A stretch of DNA of 64,000 nt from an uncultured Actinomycetes bacterium (GTDB lineage: Bacteria > Actinomycetota > Acidimicrobiia > IMCC26256 > PALSA-555), in the NCBI GenBank assembly GCA_963714105.1, contig OY970233.1, positions 755,933-819,932 on the forward strand, given 5' to 3'. Of this stretch, positions 1-8,660 are shown piece by piece. The translations under genes and the position numbers were made by a program. Position 1 is the first letter of the stretch; each line of letters opens with the position of its first letter. The notes below the pieces were generated by a model that was not told the origin of the DNA, did not search any database, and saw only the letters and a program-made list of their open reading frames with translations.

Positions 1-1618
1 GCACGTGCGAACTCTGGAAAGTGATTCGCGTTGACGCAGACCACATTGAGGTCGAACGGTGCCGGGTCTGGCCCGGTTTCCCCGTCGGGCATGGCCTCGA
101 GGCGCTCGCCGGGCACTGAGGAATGGTCGAGCACCGACGTGGCTTGGCCTCCGACCCGGAACGCGTCGACGAGCGTTCGCCCCACCGCACCGAGACCGAT
201 CGCGGACCGGAGGTACCCGACCACGTTCACGCCGACCGGGATGGGGGCTCGCAGCCGGCGGAGCTGCCGGCGGCGGCGCAACCGCTCGACGTCGTCGAGG
301 GAGGGGCGCACAGCCGACGGGATCGGCCGGTCGGTGGTCACGCACCACCGCAGGAACCGTTCGGCCGTCTCCCCGGTCAGCTCGAAGTACGCGAGGGGCA
401 GGCCGCCGTCGTCGGCCCAGAGCCGCTCGAGGTACCGGGAGACGACGGGATGATGCTCGGGGCGGACCGGTTCGTTGAGCCAGGCGACGAAGGCGGCTTC
501 GTCGACGAACGGGTTCGGGGGCTCGGGGTCGGCGTCGCCCGCGGCGCGGGCGAGGGCCTCCCGGTAGAGCTGGCGCATCCGACGGTCGATCGGGGTCCCG
601 TCCGAGAGCCGTTCGAACCGGTACGGAGGGGACGGCTGGTCGAGACCCTCGTCGCGGAGCCGCTCCGTGTACTCGCGGTACAGCCGCGCGAGGTCGGGTC
701 GCTCGGCGAGGGTGACTCGAGGGGTCCCGTCGCACGGGAAGAGCTCCCCGGGTTGTTCGGGGTCGTAGTCCCGGAAGTGCAAGCACCGGAGGCGCACGCC
801 GTCGATGGTCGGTCCGGCATCGGTCTCGGTGATCGGACGGTCGGCGACGTTCCAGTAGCCGACCCCGGAGCCGGGGTCGCGCAGCACGTGCGGACGGAAG
901 GCGCTGGCGACCTGGTCGCCCCAGGCGCGTTGGCGGCTCGCGACCGTGTCGAAGGAGTCGGGCGTGTCGGTCCGGTCCTGGAGCTGAGCCCAGCGCAGCA
1001 TCGGGCGGGCAAGCGGGGTGACGGCGACGAACCCGGGGTTGTAGGGCCCGACGCTGAGCACCGCGGCGCGGAGGGCTCCCGGCCGTCGTCGGGGATCGGC
1101 GTGGGCGCCGAGGGGACGACGACCAGGCCGTGCTCGACCGCGAGCTCGGCGACACCTTCGAACGGAGCGAAGACCTCGGAGGCCGCGTCGAGGTAGAGCG
1201 CGACGGACGCGCCGTGGTCGAGCAAGGAGCTCAGGAGCGACGGCTTCAGGACCTCCACGAGCTCCAGCTGGTCGTAGCGCATGGCCAAGCGCGCGAAGTC
1301 GTCGGGGTCGAGGTCGAGATCGTCGGGACGCAGGATCGTCCAGGGCGCCTCGGTGGGATGCGGCTGCTCGTCGAGCGCGTCGAGGACGAGGACGGCAAGG
1401 GGAGCAGCGTCGGGGTGGTGGCGGCGAAAGGATCCGGCGAGGACCCGAGCTCGCGGGAGGTCTCGGGTGGCAACGACGGTGCACACCTGCAGTGCGTTCA
1501 AGGTTTCGAATGCCTCTCGGAGCCGAGGTTCGTGTGCGGCGAGCCCCAACGGTGCCGGCACACCGTAGCGACCCGGGGAGCGTCGCCGGTATCCTCGACG
1601 TCGTGGGTTCGCTTGCAT
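1..1618 (-). pseudogene. Putative glycosyltransferase (nucleotide-diphospho-sugar transferase-like N-terminal part plus further C-terminal domain). The 3' end runs off the window and there is an apparent 1-nt frameshift near 1080-1090.
   Basis: ORF 377..1618 reads as a normal protein for about 175 aa (QVCTVVATRDLPRARVLAGSFRRHHP...PIPDDGRE), then becomes S/P/T/R-rich. A second minus frame continues sensibly from about 1080 to position 1 (GALRAAVLSVGPYNPGFVAV...VNVVGYLRSAIGLGAVGR...PFDLNVVCVNANHFPEFAR) with no stop before the window edge. The true start is probably internal to the 1618 ORF start. Confidence 0.6.
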
Positions 1619-2202
1619 TGAAGGAGTGGGCGGTCGTGGTGCGGGCCGTGCTCGCCGGCGAGCAGATCCTGGATGTGCGCAAGGGCGGACTGCGCGAGGA
1701 GGGCCGCCACTTCGGCCTGCACGGGGACTGCTTCTGGCTGTACCCGACGTACGAGCACCAACGCGTCGAGCTGGTGAAGCCCGCCTACCGGCGGTGGGTC
1801 ACCGAATCGGATCCGGGTGCGTCGACCGATGGGCACGTCCGGCTCGACGGCTGGGCCGAGGTGGTCGGGGTCGTGACGGTCACCGAGCCCGAGGAGCTGG
1901 CGCGCCTCGGGTCGAAGCTGATCTGGACCGACGACTACGCGGCGTCGCGGTTGCAGTGGAAGCGACGCGACCCGCTGTGGCTGCTCGCGTTGCGCGCGTA
2001 CCGCGTCGACGAGCCGATCCGGGCGCCCTGGCGTGACCGCTACGCGGGGTGCGCGTCGTGGGTCGATCTCGACGAGGTCCCGGACCCGCGCACGGTCGCG
2101 AGCGCACCGGCGTTGAGCGACGAGAGCTTCACGGCTCGGTTGGGGCTGGTCGAGCGGGAGCTCGGCCGATCGTTCGGACCCGCGACAGCGCCGGCGCCCT
2201 AG
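1603..2202 (+). CDS. DUF1802 family protein
   Basis: ORF 1492..2202 trimmed to the in-frame GTG at 1603. The sequence LALKEWAVVVRAVLAGEQILDVRKGGLREE...FWLYPTYEHQ is typical of DUF1802. GC3 is high. Confidence 0.75.
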   Translation: MGSLALKEWAVVVRAVLAGEQILDVRKGGLREEGRHFGLHGDCFWLYPTYEHQRVELVKPAYRRWVTESDPGASTDGHVRLDGWAEVVGVVTVTEPEELARLGSKLIWTDDYAASRLQWKRRDPLWLLALRAYRVDEPIRAPWRDRYAGCASWVDLDEVPDPRTVASAPALSDESFTARLGLVERELGRSFGPATAPAP

Positions 2203-2530: not shown

Positions 2531-2733
2531 TGTCGGCTGTTGGGTAGCGTCGGCCGTCGCGCGGGAGGGACCAATCCCCGCCGGTCCGGCGCCGGTGTCG
2601 CGGTGTGGTTTCCGCTGGCGGTCCAGCCGGTGTGTGTGGCCTAGCGGCCGCGCACCTCCAGGGTCCCGTGTTGATCATGCATGTACGGACCACCTCCTTT
2701 CCCTGGTAGCCGCACTTGTACCACGTCGGGCGG

Positions 2734-3183
2734 TCAGTCGGGAGGAGATTCGCTGAACGGGTCGGCGGGGGTGCCGATCGCGCCGATGGCCCGCAAGTAG
2801 CGCAGCTGGGTCTCGATGACGCCGTGGACCTGCTCGGGGAGGTACGGCTCGCCGGTCTCCGCCGCCCGTTGGAGAATGTACGCGGTGGTCTCGGCCCCGC
2901 CGAAGATGACGGGGCTGCGCAACGCCGGGCTGGAGCCGTTCGCGGCGACCCCGCGGCTCTTGAAGAACTCGAGTTGGAAGTCGAGGATCCGTCGGACGTC
3001 GTCGGGGGTCAGCGTGGCCGCGAGGTCATCGGGGACGTGCTCGACGACGAACTCGTACGCGTCGTCAGGATCGAACAGCGCCGGTGGTGGTTCCCGCGCG
3101 ATCCGGCCCGCTTCGCGCACGACGAAGATCGCCGCGATTCCGATGATCAACCCGAACGCGAGCAGGCCGGCCACGAGCGCCAC
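2734..3183 (-). CDS. N-terminally membrane-anchored hypothetical protein (149 aa)
   Basis: Intact ORF with high GC3. It has an N-terminal hydrophobic helix (MALVAGLLAFGLIIGIAAIFVV) followed by a soluble acidic domain. No family recognised. Confidence 0.7.
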   Translation of the reverse strand: MALVAGLLAFGLIIGIAAIFVVREAGRIAREPPPALFDPDDAYEFVVEHVPDDLAATLTPDDVRRILDFQLEFFKSRGVAANGSSPALRSPVIFGGAETTAYILQRAAETGEPYLPEQVHGVIETQLRYLRAIGAIGTPADPFSESPPD

Positions 3184-3294
3184 TCACCCGAGCGTACCGG
3201 TCGACCCCGCGAACCGTCGCTGCCGCCGGTTCGGCTCGCCGGCGCGATCCCGCGCGCTGGCTCGCGACGGGGTCGTGTCGGGATGCTGACCGGT

Positions 3295-4926
3295 TCAGGC
3301 GTGGAGGGGGGCGAAGACACCGCCGAGGTAGGACCAGGTGGTGCTCCACGTCGAGCCGTTCCACTGCTTGCTGTACATGCCCTGGTCACCGTTGTCGACG
3401 ACGAACACCCAGAGGCTCCCGTTGAAGACGACGGGGGTCGGGTCGCTGAGCACGGTCTGCCCGGTCCCCGGGCCGCCGAGGCTGGTCCAGGTGTTGGCGC
3501 TGGCGCCGGTGAGCGCCATGGCCCACACCTGGTTGTCGGTGCTGCGCGCGAAGACCCACACGGTCCCGGTCGAGTCGACGATCGGGGTGGGGTCGGACGT
3601 GAGGGTGTGCGCTGGCGTTCCCGGGTCCTCCGACCAGCCCCCCACCGACGACCAGTACGCGAGGTTGCCGTCGCCCGCGCGCACGAACATCCACACCCGA
3701 CCGGTCGGGTCGCACACCGCGGTGGGGTTCGACGTCACGGTGGGGCCACCGAGGGGCGCGAAGCCACCCCAGCTGCCGCCCGAACGCTGGAGATACGACA
3801 TCCCGGAGTCGTTGCCCCGCACGAAGACCCACATGGTGTGCGCCGTGTCGACGACCGCCGCGGCGTTCGAGCTGAGGATCCCGCCGAGCCGGATCCACCC
3901 GGGGCTGGCCTGGGGGCTGACGAAGAGGGCGTTGTCGGTCCCGCGGGCGAACACCCACGTCGTCGTGCCGTCCGCGTCGAGCACCGTGGTCGGGTCGGAG
4001 GTGATCGTCCCGCCGATCGCGTTGCTCAGCGGGGTGAGCGTCCCGCCGTTGTCGGTGACCTGCCAGACCGCCTCGTCGGCCCCGCGGAAGAACAGGGACG
4101 CGTTGGCGTTCTGGGAGACACCAGCGATCTGGGAGTTGACGTTGCCGCCCACCTTCGTCCACCCGGCCCACGTGGTGCCGTCGTAGGTCTGGTACCAGAG
4201 GGCCCCGTCGGCGCCACGGGCAGCGAGGACGAGCTTCGAACCGGCGACCGCGGCCGCGCCGCTCGTCGCGAGCGCGGCGGCGAGCGGCGGTGGTGGAGGT
4301 GGCGGGGGCACGTAGGCGGCGCAGTCCGCGTTGTGGTTCGCGGTGGCGTCGTCGACCGCGGCGGACGCGGAGCAGTAGAGCTCGGTGTACGGCGGGTACG
4401 GGGGGGTGCACAGGACCATCCGGCAGGCGATCGGCCCGATCTCGCCGAACTGGGGGTTGCACTGCCCGTACCGGAAGTAGTTGCAGTGGACCTTGCGGGT
4501 GTTGCAGTCGACCGCGCACCGGCACGGGGAGCACCCGGCGCAGAAGCCGTTCCCGATCGACGGCCCGCAGCACACCTCGTTGCAGTCGATGTAGTACCGG
4601 GGTCCGCCGCCGCAGTAGATGCTGCCGTCGGCGCGCCACCACCCGGCCGGGATCGTGTTGGGCGGGCACTCGTTGTTCCCGAAGTTGATGACACAGCAGA
4701 ACTCGGTGTACCCGTCGGTGCAGAAGGTCCCGCCGGGGCAGTCGGTGATCCGCGTGTACGGACTGCCGGGTTGGGTGACCACCGCGCAACCGGTGGCGGC
4801 GACGGCCGAGCCGACGAGGGTGGCTCGAGCGATGAAGCTGCGCCGGTTCAGCTTCGCGTCGAGGAGGCCGCTGGCCTTCGAGACCAGCCAGTTCCCCCAC
4901 GCGACACCCTCGCTGCGGTCAGTCAC
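3295..4926 (-). CDS. Tat-signal/lipobox protein: 20-Cys domain (methylamine dehydrogenase light-chain-like motifs), poly-Pro linker and seven-bladed PLL/DUF346-type beta-propeller (543 aa)
   Basis: ORF 3295..5658 trimmed to the GTG at 4926, which forms a GTGA overlap with the stop of the MauE-like gene and has a GAGGGG SD about 7 nt upstream. The twin-arginine motif is NRRSFIARATLVGSAVAATGC, with a lipobox-like ATG|C. Cys-rich segments include CPPNTIPAGWW and YIDCNEVCCG. A PPPPPPPP linker follows. There are seven repeats of W-V/M-F-x-R-G-x-D ... W ... LGG. Confidence 0.85.
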   Translation of the reverse strand: MTDRSEGVAWGNWLVSKASGLLDAKLNRRSFIARATLVGSAVAATGCAVVTQPGSPYTRITDCPGGTFCTDGYTEFCCVINFGNNECPPNTIPAGWWRADGSIYCGGGPRYYIDCNEVCCGPSIGNGFCAGCSPCRCAVDCNTRKVHCNYFRYGQCNPQFGEIGPIACRMVLCTPPYPPYTELYCSASAAVDDATANHNADCAAYVPPPPPPPPLAAALATSGAAAVAGSKLVLAARGADGALWYQTYDGTTWAGWTKVGGNVNSQIAGVSQNANASLFFRGADEAVWQVTDNGGTLTPLSNAIGGTITSDPTTVLDADGTTTWVFARGTDNALFVSPQASPGWIRLGGILSSNAAAVVDTAHTMWVFVRGNDSGMSYLQRSGGSWGGFAPLGGPTVTSNPTAVCDPTGRVWMFVRAGDGNLAYWSSVGGWSEDPGTPAHTLTSDPTPIVDSTGTVWVFARSTDNQVWAMALTGASANTWTSLGGPGTGQTVLSDPTPVVFNGSLWVFVVDNGDQGMYSKQWNGSTWSTTWSYLGGVFAPLHA

Positions 4927-5456
4927 TGCGGGCCCCTCGTCGGCTGGATCGCGGCCAGCGTACGCGGCAGGCTCGAGAGGGTCAGGTAACTGAGCCCGAC
5001 GCCGCACACGACGAGCATGAGGAACGGCACACCCGCGAGGGGCTGGTGCGTCACGACCGGGCCGAGGCCGGCCGGGGGTTCGACCGCGACGACGGCCGCG
5101 GCGGCGACCGCGACCAGGTTGACGATGACGTGCAGCCGCGTGGGGGGCGTGTCGGCCTTGCCGAAGCATCCGCACGACGAGATCGGGGCGCCGGACCGCA
5201 ACGCGACGACGACGAAGGCGGCGAACGCCGCGTACGAGACCGCGACGAGGATCGCGGTGGTCCGGTTGCCGACGGCCAGCGCGGCGGTGCCGACGACGAT
5301 CTCGGCGAGCCCGCCGACTCGGACCAGGAGCGGCGAGGTGGGAAGGTGAACGGCCCGCAGCGCGTTCGCGGTGTCGCCGGGCCGCGCGGCCTTGGCCGCG
5401 CCGCCGGCGACGAGCAGCGCGGCGGCGATCGCGAACGGTCCGGCGGCGAGGGTCAT
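4923..5456 (-). CDS. MauE/DoxX-like integral membrane protein
   Basis: Intact 177-aa ORF with 4-5 hydrophobic helices and the SSCGCFGK motif characteristic of the MauE family. An ATGA overlap with the upstream gene and a GTGA overlap with the downstream gene indicate translational coupling. Confidence 0.8.
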   Translation of the reverse strand: MTLAAGPFAIAAALLVAGGAAKAARPGDTANALRAVHLPTSPLLVRVGGLAEIVVGTAALAVGNRTTAILVAVSYAAFAAFVVVALRSGAPISSCGCFGKADTPPTRLHVIVNLVAVAAAAVVAVEPPAGLGPVVTHQPLAGVPFLMLVVCGVGLSYLTLSSLPRTLAAIQPTRGPQ

Positions 5457-5971
5457 GGCCGGGGGGTGAGCTCGGGGGCGATCTGGAGGCTGGCGAGGAC
5501 CTCGTTGACGCGGGGGACGATGGTGTTGCGGTTCGCGTAGGCGCCGAGCACGACGTAGAGGCAGAAGGGTCGGTTCGCCTGGGTGAAGAAGCGCTGCACG
5601 CCGGCCTGGCCGGGGAGACGACGTTGGAGGATGCCGGGATCGAACTCCTCGGGATCAAGCCGTTGCGGGAGGCCCGACGGTGCGAACAGCGCGGTGTTGA
5701 GCTCAGCCGGTCCGAACTCCTTCAACACGACGAGGGCGTCGTTCGGGCCGAGCTTCTCGACCGCGTCGCTGGCGTAATCGGCGACGTCGTTGGGCAGGGG
5801 AATCGTGGCGACGTGCGCGACGGGGTAGGTCTGTTCACCGGGCGGTCCGGGCCGGCCGGGCGCGCCGGCGGCGGCGTCGGAGACCTCGCCGGCCTGGGGC
5901 CGCCGGAAGATCCGACCTTCCCACCCGCGCGGCGGCGAGACGGTCAAGCCGTGCGCTTGGAGCTGGGGCAC
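5453..5971 (-). CDS. Hypothetical soluble protein (172 aa), operon member
   Basis: Intact ORF with protein-like composition and high GC3. It overlaps the MauE-like start by ATGA. No family recognised. Confidence 0.75.
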   Translation of the reverse strand: MPQLQAHGLTVSPPRGWEGRIFRRPQAGEVSDAAAGAPGRPGPPGEQTYPVAHVATIPLPNDVADYASDAVEKLGPNDALVVLKEFGPAELNTALFAPSGLPQRLDPEEFDPGILQRRLPGQAGVQRFFTQANRPFCLYVVLGAYANRNTIVPRVNEVLASLQIAPELTPRP

Positions 5972-5980
5972 GCCTTCTCC

Positions 5981-6574
5981 TTAGACGATCAGCGCAGCGC
6001 TGGTGGCGGCGACGAGCACGAGACACGTTATGGCGGCAATGGTGGCGGCTGCGGACCATCGGTGCACGCGTTGGAGCACGTCCCGGAGGTGCCCGGGGTC
6101 GTCGGCGCGGGCGACGGCGAGGAGCGGCACCGACCGGACGAGCCCGAAGACGCCGCCCACGAGGAGTCCCGCCGGCAGGGATCCGGCGAGGACGACGAGG
6201 GCGAGGGCGAGGTAGACGGTCGAGGTGGTCACGATGGTGACGACACCGAGCCCGAGCTGGAACCCGAAGCCGCCGCCGTAGACCCAGCCGCGGTACCGAG
6301 CCAGCCAGTTCTCGTTGACCTGGCGGTGGACGGTCGGGAGGCGAGCGCCGAAGATCCCGAGATCGAACGCGAGGCCGACCATGCACGCCAGAACGGCGAG
6401 CCCGCCGAGCAGCTTCGGTCCCGGCGACAACTGGTGCAGGCCGACGCCGAGCGCACCCGCGACGGCGCCGATCGCGAGTCCCCCCGCGGTCGAACCGGCG
6501 ACGTACCAGGCGACCGTGCGCCCCCAACGGGTGTGTCGTGCCCGCTCCCCGAGCGGGTTGATGCTGGCCAGCAT
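5981..6574 (-). CDS. Polytopic membrane protein (197 aa, about 5 TM helices), family not recognised
   Basis: Intact ORF with G/A/L/V-rich helices. A GGAG SD lies 6 nt upstream of the ATG, immediately after the micro-ORF stop. Confidence 0.75.
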   Translation of the reverse strand: MLASINPLGERARHTRWGRTVAWYVAGSTAGGLAIGAVAGALGVGLHQLSPGPKLLGGLAVLACMVGLAFDLGIFGARLPTVHRQVNENWLARYRGWVYGGGFGFQLGLGVVTIVTTSTVYLALALVVLAGSLPAGLLVGGVFGLVRSVPLLAVARADDPGHLRDVLQRVHRWSAAATIAAITCLVLVAATSAALIV

Positions 6575-6583
6575 CGATTCTCC

Positions 6584-6661
6584 TCAGGGCGACCACGAGG
6601 AGCGGAGCCCCGCGATGACGGCCACCGCCACCGCGGCGACGGTGAGCTCCGCCGAGCTCAT
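6584..6661 (-). CDS. Candidate 25-aa micro-protein MSSAELTVAAVAVAVIAGLRSSWSP (single hydrophobic helix)
   Basis: This ORF is below the ORF-track size cut-off and was translated by hand. Its ATG overlaps the TGA of the MauD-like gene (ATGA). All 25 codons end in G/C. Its stop is followed by GGAGAATCG and the ATG of the next gene. Confidence 0.5.
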   Translation of the reverse strand: MSSAELTVAAVAVAVIAGLRSSWSP

Positions 6662-7395
6662 CGGGGCGGTTCGACCTCAGGATCGGCGTCGCCGAGGTAG
6701 AGGCTGGCGTCTCCGGGCTTGAGCCCGGCGGCGAGCAGCTGCGCGTCGACGTCGGGTTCGCGCTCGGCGCGACCGGACCGGCGGCGCCGCCCGGAGGCCA
6801 TCCCGGCGTCGTCGAGGGCTTGCTGCACGATGGTGCGCAGGTGCTCCCAGCTCGACGCCGCGCCCTCGCCGATCACGGCTCCACTAGGGCCGTCCACGAG
6901 CGCGAAGTACGGCGCGACGGGCACGTCGTAGTCGTCCCACGCTTCGCTGGACATGACGACCGGGACGTGGGGCGGCGCGAACTTCGACAGCCGGCCCGGG
7001 CTCTCGGCGTCGGCGCCTTTGGTCGCGACGACCAGACGGGCGCCGCCGGGCACCTTCAGGCGCCGGTCGGCGTACGCCGACCAGAACGCCGAACAGGTGG
7101 AGCACCCGCTGGTCAGGAAGGAGACGAGGGTCAGGTGCTCGACGCCGACGACACCGACGCCGATCGCGTCACCCTCGGGGGTGAGACCGGCGAGGTCGGA
7201 GCCGGTCCGCGAAGCCCGGCGGAGGGGCACCTCGAGCCCGGCCCGGGCGGGCTGGTCGTCGTCGGGGTCGAGACCGACGCCGAGCTCGTGCAACGAGCGG
7301 AGGATCTCGGCGTGGCTGCGCAGCAGGCCGGCAACCAAGACGGCGAGCAGCGCCACCACGACGGCGAGCAGAACGACCAGGACCGCCACGGACAC
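6658..7395 (-). CDS. MauD/TlpA-like membrane-anchored thioredoxin-fold protein (CxxC = CSTC)
   Basis: Intact 245-aa ORF with an N-terminal TM helix (VAVLVVLLAVVVALLAVLVAGLL) and the LTSGCSTCSAFW redox motif. It is the first gene of the 7395-to-3295 operon. Confidence 0.8.
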   Translation of the reverse strand: MSVAVLVVLLAVVVALLAVLVAGLLRSHAEILRSLHELGVGLDPDDDQPARAGLEVPLRRASRTGSDLAGLTPEGDAIGVGVVGVEHLTLVSFLTSGCSTCSAFWSAYADRRLKVPGGARLVVATKGADAESPGRLSKFAPPHVPVVMSSEAWDDYDVPVAPYFALVDGPSGAVIGEGAASSWEHLRTIVQQALDDAGMASGRRRRSGRAEREPDVDAQLLAAGLKPGDASLYLGDADPEVEPPR

Positions 7396-7529: not shown

Positions 7530-8660
7530 TCAGATGCCGATGCGTTGGGCCAGGAGCTCGCGGTGGTACGTGGCGTCGCCGAGGAGGATCTCGGAGCTCT
7601 TCGCCCGCTTGAAGTAGAGGTGCGCGGGGTGCTCCCACGTGAAGCCGATCCCGCCGTGGATCTGGATGTTCTCGGCCGCGGCGTGGAAGTACGCGTCGGA
7701 GCAGTAGGCCTTCGCGAGGCTCGCGACGACGGGGAGCTCCTCGTTGTCCTCGGCGGCTGCCCACGCGGCGTAGTACGCCGCGGACTTCGCGGATTCGACC
7801 TCGAGGAGCATGTCCGCGCACTTGTGCTTGATGGCTTGGAACGACCCGATCGGCCGTCCGAACTGCACTCGGACCTTCGCGTACTCCACGGACATCTCGA
7901 GAACCCGCTGCGCTCCGCCGACCATCTCGTTCGCGAGGCAGACGGCGGCCTGGTCAAGCGTCTTCGAGAGCGCCGCCCATCCGGAGCCGGGATCGCCGAG
8001 CGGGCGGGCCGCGACACCGTCGAAGTCGAGGCGCGCCTGCTTGCGGGTCTGGTCCATCGTGGCCAGCGGCGTGCGGGTCAATCCGCTCGCGTCGCCGTCG
8101 ACGACGAAGAACCCGATCCCGTCCTCACCGGTTGTGCCGGCCTGGCGGGCCACGACGACGATCGTCGACGCGGTGTGACCGTCGATCACGAACATCTTCG
8201 TGCCCGAGAGGGTCCAGGAGTCACCGGCGCCCTTGGATTCCATGGTGATCCCGGACGCGTCCCACCGGCCGTTCGGCTCGGTGAAGGCCAGCGCGGCGAT
8301 CGTGTCACCGGAGGCGATCCCGGGCAGCAGCTCGCCTTGTTGGGCGTCGGTCCCGGCGTTCATGATCGCGTTCGCGGCGAGGCACACGGTCGAGAGGTAC
8401 GGGGCGCAGAGCAGCACCCGGCCCATCTCCTCGAGCACGATGCCGAGCTCGACGAACGAGAAGCCCTGCCCGCCGTGCTGCTCGGGGAGGTGCAGGCTCT
8501 GGAGGCCGAGCTCCTGGGCCATCTGGGTCCAGACGGCGGGGTCGTAGCCCTCGGTCGTCTCCATCAGGCGGCGCACTTCGGCTTCGGGGCTCTTGGCCTC
8601 CAAGAACTTGCGGACAGCGTCCCGCAGCTGGTCTTGCTCGTCGGAGAACGCGAAGTTCAC
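7530..8660 (-). CDS. Acyl-CoA dehydrogenase family protein (376 aa)
   Basis: Intact ORF. The N-terminal DEQDQLRDAVRKFL, FGRPIGSFQAIKHKCADM and IHGGIGFTWEHPAHLYFKRA are typical ACAD motifs. Confidence 0.9.
   Translation of the reverse strand: MNFAFSDEQDQLRDAVRKFLEAKSPEAEVRRLMETTEGYDPAVWTQMAQELGLQSLHLPEQHGGQGFSFVELGIVLEEMGRVLLCAPYLSTVCLAANAIMNAGTDAQQGELLPGIASGDTIAALAFTEPNGRWDASGITMESKGAGDSWTLSGTKMFVIDGHTASTIVVVARQAGTTGEDGIGFFVVDGDASGLTRTPLATMDQTRKQARLDFDGVAARPLGDPGSGWAALSKTLDQAAVCLANEMVGGAQRVLEMSVEYAKVRVQFGRPIGSFQAIKHKCADMLLEVESAKSAAYYAAWAAAEDNEELPVVASLAKAYCSDAYFHAAAENIQIHGGIGFTWEHPAHLYFKRAKSSEILLGDATYHRELLAQRIGI

Follow-up and report, generated by a model that had tools for sequence, protein, structure and literature searches.

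A mau-like operon of uncultured Actinomycetota with a candidate selenocysteine-containing MauF homologue and a Tat-exported cysteine-rich protein

We analysed a 64-kb stretch (64,000 nucleotides, called the window below) of contig OY970233.1 from an uncultured Actinomycetes bacterium, and in it an operon on the minus strand at positions 3295–7395 that resembles the accessory part of the mau cluster of methylotrophs. Very probably its gene for a homologue of the membrane protein MauF contains an in-frame UGA codon that is decoded as selenocysteine (Sec). The operon as a whole is probably a dedicated, selenium-dependent redox maturation system for a Cys-rich protein exported by the twin-arginine translocation (Tat) pathway. 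Five genes follow each other on the minus strand. They encode a MauD-like thioredoxin-fold protein of 245 aa (6658–7395), a MauF-family polytopic membrane protein (5981–6661; 226 codons including the UGA), a soluble protein of 172 aa from no recognised family, referred to here as g3 (5453–5971), a MauE-family membrane protein of 177 aa (4923–5456) and an exported fusion protein of 543 aa (3295–4926). The G+C content of this region is about 72%, and the genes overlap at ATGA (6658–6661 and 5453–5456) and GTGA (4923–4926). The original prediction, made from the sequence of the window, listed six coupled genes. The open reading frames (ORFs) and their overlaps stand; the number of genes is reduced to five, since the 25-codon ORF and the 197-aa ORF merge into one.

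The 25-codon micro-ORF lies at 6587–6661 with a TGA stop at 6584–6586, and the 197-aa ORF lies at 5981–6574; they form the 5' and 3' parts of the MauF-like gene. The mau cluster on the Paracoccus denitrificans plasmid NC_008688 (locus L005) served as the reference. The 197-aa ORF alone matched P. denitrificans MauF with E=2e-4. When the two ORFs were joined and the UGA was read as Cys, the match covered 219 aa at 32% identity (E=5e-24), and the in-frame stop was exactly opposite the Cys of MauF STWSPCG. Three MauF proteins of Proteobacteria, those of Paracoccus, Methylobacterium and Indioceanicola, all have the motif GGLLSTWSPCGYSS unchanged. In 18 related loci the micro-ORF encodes a hydrophobic helix ending in (I/L)RS(S/T)WSP and is always in frame with the downstream ORF. 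The gap between them consists of the stop and three codons for G-E-S, which in the window are TGA and GGA GAA TCG. Judged from these alignments, the micro-ORF and the 197-aa ORF are one MauF homologue. That this pair is a single gene, in which a UGA stands in frame at the conserved cysteine of MauF, had been overlooked. Both had been counted, together with the 172-aa protein, as members without a family, and only the 172-aa protein remains so.

P. denitrificans MauF itself matches no Pfam or NCBIfam model, and there is no curated hidden Markov model (HMM) of MauF. The DsbD_2 model (PF13386) matched the 197-aa ORF with E=1.4e-5 (25.5 bits at a threshold of 24.9) and the joined protein with 24.2 bits, below the threshold. 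Once the micro-ORF is added, the start of this alignment moves from HMM position 32 to 4. In the window sequence and a four-sequence alignment, the MauF-like protein has one conserved redox residue, the U/C of WSP(U/C)G, at the end of the first transmembrane (TM) helix. At the position of the other Cys of the window protein, P. denitrificans MauF has no Cys. With P. denitrificans MauF as the tblastn query, 26 related loci were matched (best E=7e-14). We also searched 85 loci by tblastn with the window proteins, and the counts out of 85 given below refer to this search. It turned out that a MauF-like gene is present in 48 of the 85.

The candidate Sec codon (6584–6586, minus strand; motif WSP-U-GES) is TGA in 48 of 48 instances of the motif from 44 independent loci. 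TAA, TAG or a sense codon never occurs in these instances. The codon TGC stands at this position in the Cys forms of loci L088, L089 and L090. The codon after the UGA is GGC, GGT, GGG or GGA and always encodes Gly; GGC is the commonest (49%). The codon wobbles and the residue is fixed, which is the pattern of a translated codon. MauF also keeps the G and the S of G-E-S (CGYS). On either side of the UGA, in the same frame, 44 loci show conserved amino acids and wobbling codons.

Contiguous Cys homologues were found in a scan of 1.84 billion representative proteins, which returned 1377 relatives of the MauF-like protein. Among the best 150 of these 1377, nearly all start at the Met past the UGA and are truncated gene calls, and six carry 25–32 extra residues with Cys at the UGA position. 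The contiguous Cys homologues are P0415, P0460, P0485, P0491, P0498 and P0506. P0415 reads FRSSWSPCGESMLASINP and belongs to an orthologous cluster that encodes a thioredoxin-like protein, the Cys form of MauF, a g3-fasciclin protein, MauE and a Cys-rich protein of 517 aa. Locus L088 is the only Cys conversion within the same cluster type.

The synonymous sites are near-frozen in the 14 codons past the UGA (frequencies of TCG.98, AGC 1.0, ATC.98, CCG.98, CTC.98 and CGG 1.0). At conserved residues elsewhere in the MauF-like gene the top codon reaches 0.38–0.73, and three to five codons are used. The frozen bases form two hairpins. The second one (6541–6557, minus strand; CCCGCUC-GGG-GAGCGGG in the window) is a candidate for the selenocysteine insertion sequence (SECIS). 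It has a stem of 7–8 bp and a three-base GGN loop, with 33 nt from the UGA to the loop, and folds at −9.7 kcal/mol or below in 44 of 44 UGA forms (mean −13.8). It meets the constraints of the published bacterial SECIS (bSECIS) model: an apical loop of 3–9 nt, a stem of 4–16 bp, G at the first two loop positions, 16–37 nt from the UGA and a minimum free energy of −7.5 or lower (PMC13188914). The basal pair is C-G in 32 cases, U-G in 6 and U-A in 5, a limited covariation. DNA is available for two kinds of Cys form, and in both this hairpin is destroyed (CCGGTGACCGAACGG and CCGCTGACCGAACGG, about −3.5 kcal/mol). The first hairpin (6560–6575, minus strand; GAUGCU-GGCC-AGCAUC) starts 8 nt past the UGA and has a perfect 6-bp stem that is invariant in 44 loci. 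A seventh base pair in this stem was rejected: its apparent covariation follows phylogeny, and a 2-nt loop would result.

If there is no Sec, translation truly ends at the UGA. The gene would then yield a TM peptide of 25 aa and a protein of 197 aa, the latter by translational coupling with a restart at the AUG 9 nt downstream. Several observations speak for this and weigh against selenocysteine. GGAG, 5 nt and AUG come next after the UGA in the window, an arrangement that resembles a stop-restart junction. The restart AUG lies inside the conserved first hairpin, where a terminating ribosome could open it, and gene callers use this AUG as the start in nearly all homologues. Among the stop codons of high-GC actinobacteria, TGA is the most frequent (PMC13449736). 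Neither sel genes nor a tRNA-Sec were found within the 64-kb window. The first hairpin is also retained in the Cys forms (L088, L089) and is therefore not a Sec-specific element. However, the split would fall precisely on the codon of the invariant MauF Cys, and the codons that would be intergenic encode G-E-S, two residues of which MauF shares. The Gly wobble abolishes the GGAG, which resembles a ribosome-binding site, in most loci. There are uninterrupted Cys forms, including one from an orthologous cluster, and the SECIS-compliant hairpin of all 44 UGA forms is missing from Cys forms. In addition, E. coli SelA, SelB and SelD as queries found matches a few kb from the cluster in three related genomes. 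Genes selA and selB adjoin it in L061 (13459–15575; E=3e-48 and 8e-47), selD in L049 (5585–6553; E=1e-77) and a fragmented selA in L042 (5142–5930); no tRNA-Sec was found in these three loci. This suggests that a linkage like that of selenoprotein operons is possible. We consider the stop and restart improbable. That the MauF-like gene is a single read-through gene with the UGA decoded as selenocysteine is, on the comparative sequence evidence, highly likely.

The May-2026 catalogue of 119 prokaryotic selenoprotein families contains no MauF and no DsbD_2-type membrane protein with a single Sec (PMC13188914). The joined MauF-like protein matches no NCBIfam selenoprotein model, and a literature search found no published link between MauF and selenocysteine. 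Like catalogued selenoproteins (TsoB rhodanese/DsbD fusion-like, MerT-like, YeeE/YedE; PMC13188914), it is of a redox type and has a candidate Sec where a Cys is otherwise conserved; it has Cys homologues and, past the UGA, a hairpin of the bSECIS kind. If the codon is decoded as we propose, this is a new membrane selenoprotein family beyond those 119. Gene callers would then systematically miss the first 29 codons of the gene, and many genomes derived from metagenomes would have the family mis-annotated as two ORFs or one truncated ORF. A selenocysteine substitution is the mark of a catalytic redox residue. Since the candidate Sec stands at the Cys of WSPCG, this residue would be the active site of MauF and offers an experimental handle. 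A Cys-form MauF-like protein, P0498 (WSPCGLSM; L089:760–1554 and L090:279–1073), adjoins an FMO-like flavin monooxygenase and a flavodoxin, a different gene context, so the MauF-like family is not restricted to Mau-type clusters.

Since the 1990s it has been known that methylamine dehydrogenase needs MauF, MauE and MauD, whose biochemical roles are unclear. The 245-aa protein of the window begins with a hydrophobic TM helix, which is followed by a thioredoxin-like domain with GCxxCxxFW. It matched P. denitrificans MauD by BLASTP with E=2e-8, and its GCSTC stands opposite SCPVC of MauD. GCxxCxxFW, with its CxxC, is invariant in 68 homologues, and the cis-Pro region is also conserved. P. denitrificans MauD as the tblastn query matched 16 related loci (best E=2e-9), and the window protein found its like in 76 of the 85 loci. 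The 177-aa protein is a member of PF07291 MauE (E=1.7e-15, 57.9 bits at a cut-off of 27, residues 7–124) with a weak match to PF07681 of the DoxX clan. Its SCGCFG stands opposite DCGCFR in MauE of P. denitrificans, CGCFG is unchanged across 54 homologues, and the gene is present in 74 of the 85 loci. Thus, both the membrane-anchored MauD-like CxxC thioredoxin and the MauE protein with CGCFG, for which a PF07291 match had been expected, were borne out.

The protein g3 has no signal peptide and is encoded in 74 of the 85 loci. No match was found for it in Pfam, NCBIfam or PDB sequences, either alone or as a profile of 46 sequences, and it has no similarity to MauJ. In loci L002, L004, L026 and L088, g3 forms the N-terminal half of fasciclin (PF02469) proteins. 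The fusions at L002:6529–7458, L004:6536–7480 and L088:1648–2484 have neither a signal peptide nor a TM helix, which hints at hitch-hiking export or at an unusual cytoplasmic fasciclin. The fusions favour an extracytoplasmic destination of g3. Stops inside two g3 tblastn matches were considered as further Sec sites and turned out to be simply gene ends.

The last gene encodes a protein identical to P0001, which has at least 385 full-length homologues. Its leader (4789–4926, minus strand) contains NRRSFIARATLVGSAVAATG; the twin-arginine motif LNRRSFIARATLVGSAVAATG comes after an n-region of 27 residues, and then a hydrophobic stretch. The pattern SRR(S/G)F(L/I) is conserved in homologues, and by this leader the 543-aa protein is a predicted Tat substrate. 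A lipoprotein reading of ATGC in the leader was dropped, because this Cys is not conserved in homologues. The leader is followed by a Cys-rich domain of about 150 aa (4312–4791, minus strand). In homologue alignments it has 11 invariant and about 4 nearly invariant Cys and the motifs GWW[RK], RYYIDC and FRYGQC. A linker with a run of eight prolines leads to a seven-bladed lectin β-propeller of the PLL/PHL type (3298–4281, minus strand). Here phmmer against PDB matched 8q83 (E=6e-43), 5mxe (E=2.8e-34), 6rfz (E=2.2e-32) and, over residues 217–537, 8q7u. PF26607 (Beta-prop_PLL) is precomputed for all 120 homologues among the matches listed. The C-terminal 320 aa align over all blades with the Photorhabdus PLL/PHL lectins (5c9l, 5mxe, 6rfz, 8q83); the difference is that here the propeller is the C-terminal module of an actinobacterial Tat-leader protein, behind a Cys-rich domain. 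The fusion of a Cys-knot domain with a propeller had been predicted, and a propeller is there, specifically of this lectin type, but it is not essential to the system. In many lineages the Cys-rich domain occurs alone or with other modules: LGFP repeats (PF08310), FG-GAP-like repeats and other repeats (L041, L044, L039, L084, L079, P0359). What stays constant beside the accessory genes is therefore the Cys-rich domain, and the propeller is one of several interchangeable add-ons.

In all, 179 species-representative genomes were found to encode the Cys-rich domain, and every one of them belongs to Actinomycetota. The carriers belong to Acidimicrobiia, Solirubrobacterales, Egibacteraceae and Euzebyaceae, and some are labelled Mycobacteriales or Frankiales. 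There are two gene orders. In the first, D-F-g3-E-Cys, which is that of the window, the protein carries the propeller. In the second, E-Cys-D-F-g3, the Cys-rich precursor stands alone and has about 200 aa. The accessory genes co-occur strictly with the Cys-rich domain in these two orders. Neither MauB, MauG, MauJ nor amicyanin was found by tblastn in the 64-kb window or in the 85 related loci. The original prediction had noted the absence of mauB, mauG and amicyanin from the window, and the absence extends to the related loci. It had asked whether the six-gene order is conserved across Actinomycetota. The genes do recur together there, in two orders, and the MauF-like gene is missing from about 25 loci.

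From the gene content and its linkage, we suppose that the five-gene operon is probably a dedicated, selenium-dependent redox maturation system for the Tat-exported Cys-rich protein. The proposal that Mau accessory proteins here lack an amine dehydrogenase and are dedicated to a single Tat-exported protein rich in Cys, as a system not described so far, is supported by our analysis, which adds MauF and a linkage that persists through two gene orders in several actinobacterial classes. The precursor would be exported via Tat. Outside the membrane, the anchored MauD-like thioredoxin would form or reshuffle about seven disulfides of the Cys-rich domain and would then be recycled by the MauE-like and MauF-like proteins. 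The MauE-like protein, of the DoxX clan, may link the system to quinone. The MauF-like protein, distantly similar to DsbD/CcdA, may exchange through a selenenyl-sulfide at its single Sec/Cys at the outer end of TM1. As a guess, g3 may be a cytoplasmic leader-binding chaperone or a Tat hitch-hiker, that is, a co-exported partner. The matured domain would be tethered to a PLL-type propeller here and would elsewhere be free or joined to wall- or glycan-binding repeats. In view of the propeller, LGFP and other modules, the cell envelope is the probable place of action of the mature protein, which would sit there on glycans or the wall.

Some points weigh against this maturation system. About 25 otherwise complete loci (L002, L004, L011–L026 and others) have no MauF-like gene, so it is not indispensable; in them the selenoprotein seems to have been lost and not converted to a Cys form. 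The MauD-like protein scored only 15.8 bits (E=0.007) with the MauD equivalog model TIGR02661, whose cut-off is 188.6, and is therefore MauD-like and not a MauD equivalog. The Cys-rich protein is a putative substrate by gene linkage only, the direction of electron flow is a guess, as is the part assigned to g3, and all the genomes are metagenome-assembled (MAGs).

The original prediction had also seen motifs like those of the methylamine dehydrogenase light chain in the Cys-rich domain and expected a PF02975 match. This match is absent, at cut-offs of E≤1–10, for the protein, for 30 domain sequences and for the domain profile. The domain sequences have no Pfam or PDB sequence match at all, and the profile finds none in PDB even at E≤10. 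The motifs came down to a weak similarity: the profile score is not above shuffled controls, but the light chains of tryptophan tryptophylquinone (TTQ) enzymes head the Foldseek lists. With hhalign the domain matched MauA alone at E=0.043 and the 117-sequence MauA family at E=0.0047 (score 23.5, 59 columns; aligned stretch DG..C.C...CPPGT...W...CCG...C.C). Among 30 column-shuffled controls two scored higher, up to 30.8; for sequences as rich in Cys as these, the profile evidence therefore lacks significance. A forced global alignment of the domain with MauA was meaningless and was discarded. AlphaFold (AF2) models of the domain had a predicted local distance difference test (pLDDT) of 64.8 with 30 sequences, and a pLDDT of 78.0 and a predicted template-modelling score (pTM) of 0.75 with 131 sequences. 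Both were searched with Foldseek against 350,542 PDB chains. For the first model the top 14 matches were all aromatic amine dehydrogenase light chains, and a methylamine dehydrogenase light chain had rank 16. For the better model TTQ light chains had ranks 1, 2, 7, 12, 20, 21 and 28, with about 115 columns aligned. These light-chain matches are poor for both models (E=0.26–8, TM-scores 0.28–0.38). In a manual alignment many Cys spacings match the light chain, among them that of the last two aligned Cys, with 11 residues in between. Both the hhalign and the manual alignment place the second Trp of the invariant GWW opposite β-Trp57, and in the latter an invariant Gln of the domain takes the position of β-Trp108. 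Compared with the TTQ light subunit (PF02975; 2bbk, 1mda, 2agx), the domain protein is of similar size, with at least 12 Cys, the stretch DG..C.C...CPPxT...W...CCG and a long twin-arginine leader; the leader of P. denitrificans MauA is similarly long. It differs in that the Cys-rich domain stands alone or is fused to lectin or wall modules and is not paired with a MauB propeller. The Cys-rich domain and the TTQ light chain may plausibly share a distant ancestor, chiefly in view of the MauD/E/F gene context. A TTQ cofactor in the Cys-rich domain is unlikely.

The function of the Cys-rich protein can be read in other ways. It could be a divergent TTQ light-subunit homologue with a Trp-derived or cross-linked cofactor, the propeller taking the place of the heavy subunit in an extracellular quinoprotein. 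The lead of the light chains in both Foldseek lists, the placement of GWW, the Cys spacing, the shared long Tat leader and the MauD, MauE and MauF homologues as neighbours are in its favour, and the invariant W48, W49, R62, D66, R96 and FRYGQ suggest an active or binding site. Against it stand the empty PF02975 and PDB profile searches, the shuffled controls that exceed the hhalign score, the poor Foldseek values and the Gln at the second TTQ tryptophan. No MauG was found in the 85 loci, and the domain occurs without any propeller in many lineages. We consider an extracellular quinoprotein unlikely. Slightly less likely still, the domain is the catalytic core of a new class of extracellular redox enzymes that arose from the TTQ light subunit. 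It would hold another post-translational cofactor or a cross-link at the invariant GWW/FRYGQC residues, with selenium-dependent maturation by MauD, MauE and MauF and targeting to glycans or the cell wall by the interchangeable lectin and wall modules. If this were true, MauF would be a redox-active (Cys/Sec) component of Mau-type maturation, and the roles of MauF, MauE and MauD would be settled.

The product could also be a secreted Cys-rich peptide of the bacteriocin type or the RiPP (ribosomally made, post-translationally modified peptide) type, as for Streptomyces candidates with mauE and mauD. The decRiPPter study described three such candidate families with mauE, one of them also with mauD, beside a predicted Cys-rich precursor of at least 8 Cys, in genomes without the rest of the mau cluster; it called the role of MauE speculative and that of MauD unclear, and did not follow the families up (PMC7794033). 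The precursors predicted in those clusters are short, and neither MauF nor a selenoprotein was noted there (PMC7794033). In contrast, the Cys-rich unit here is a conserved domain, about 150 aa long, behind a Tat leader and often fused to lectin or wall-binding modules of 300 aa, and the loci have no peptidase, transporter or core-modifying enzyme in common; a RiPP-like peptide is thus very improbable. An equally remote prospect is that the accessory genes belong to a general envelope thiol-redox or cytochrome c maturation pathway of the CcdA/ResA kind and merely adjoin the Cys-rich gene. The MauD-like protein is indeed a membrane-anchored thioredoxin of the TlpA/ResA type. The MauF-like protein matches DsbD_2, the "cytochrome c biogenesis protein transmembrane region". 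As in DsbD/CcdA (PF02683/PF13386), it is paired with an extracytoplasmic thioredoxin-fold protein, and its SP(C/U) at the end of TM1 lies on the N-terminal part of the model. However, it has one conserved redox residue where CcdA/DsbD have two TM cysteines, its score is at or below the gathering threshold, and its nearest relatives are MauF proteins. The linkage persists even where, across classes, the gene order is completely rearranged, and no haem lyase or ResBC/CcsBA genes were seen in the Pfam-annotated loci.

The system appears to be related to the known mau cluster (mauFBEDACJGMN of P. denitrificans and Methylobacterium), with an uncatalogued selenoprotein family. Both have F, E and D homologues with WSP(C/U)G, CGCF and CxxC, and in both the accessory genes adjoin a gene for a small Cys-rich protein with a Tat leader. 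In contrast to the mau cluster, the operon of the window lacks mauB, MauG, MauJ, amicyanin and MauMN, and its gene order is different. Its MauF homologue has UGA for Cys, and there is an extra 172-aa protein. The putative substrate has no PF02975 match and no second TTQ tryptophan, and the hosts are Actinomycetota instead of methylotrophic Proteobacteria. The Mau accessory module is not tied to methylotrophy and probably serves a widespread, unannotated Cys-rich domain that is present in 179 species genomes of soil and sediment Actinomycetota.

Upstream of the operon is an acyl-CoA dehydrogenase gene (7530–8660). A scan for promoters and terminators found no sigma-70-type promoter and no intrinsic terminator, which says little because the G+C content is so high. 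In the window and around the UGA, no Rfam family reached its gathering threshold. ARAGORN reported a 95-nt "tRNA-???" with an odd anticodon at 1701–1795 (minus strand). It lies inside a DUF1802 ORF, matches no Rfam tRNA and is a false positive, not a tRNA-Sec. Long antisense or out-of-frame ORFs overlap the real genes, for example at 2716–4989 (plus strand, 757 aa) and 3295–5658 (minus strand, 787 aa). As genes they were rejected: they are typical high-G+C artefacts without homologue support. Directly 3' of the operon is a gene for a membrane-anchored protein of 149 aa (2734–3183, minus strand) with no Pfam match and no recognised family, followed by the DUF1802 gene (1492–2202, plus strand). 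By size and position, the 149-aa protein may be the same as the unannotated genes for 143–155 aa at the equivalent place in L001–L003. This downstream gene may be part of the locus in this clade; it shows no linkage in the other gene order.

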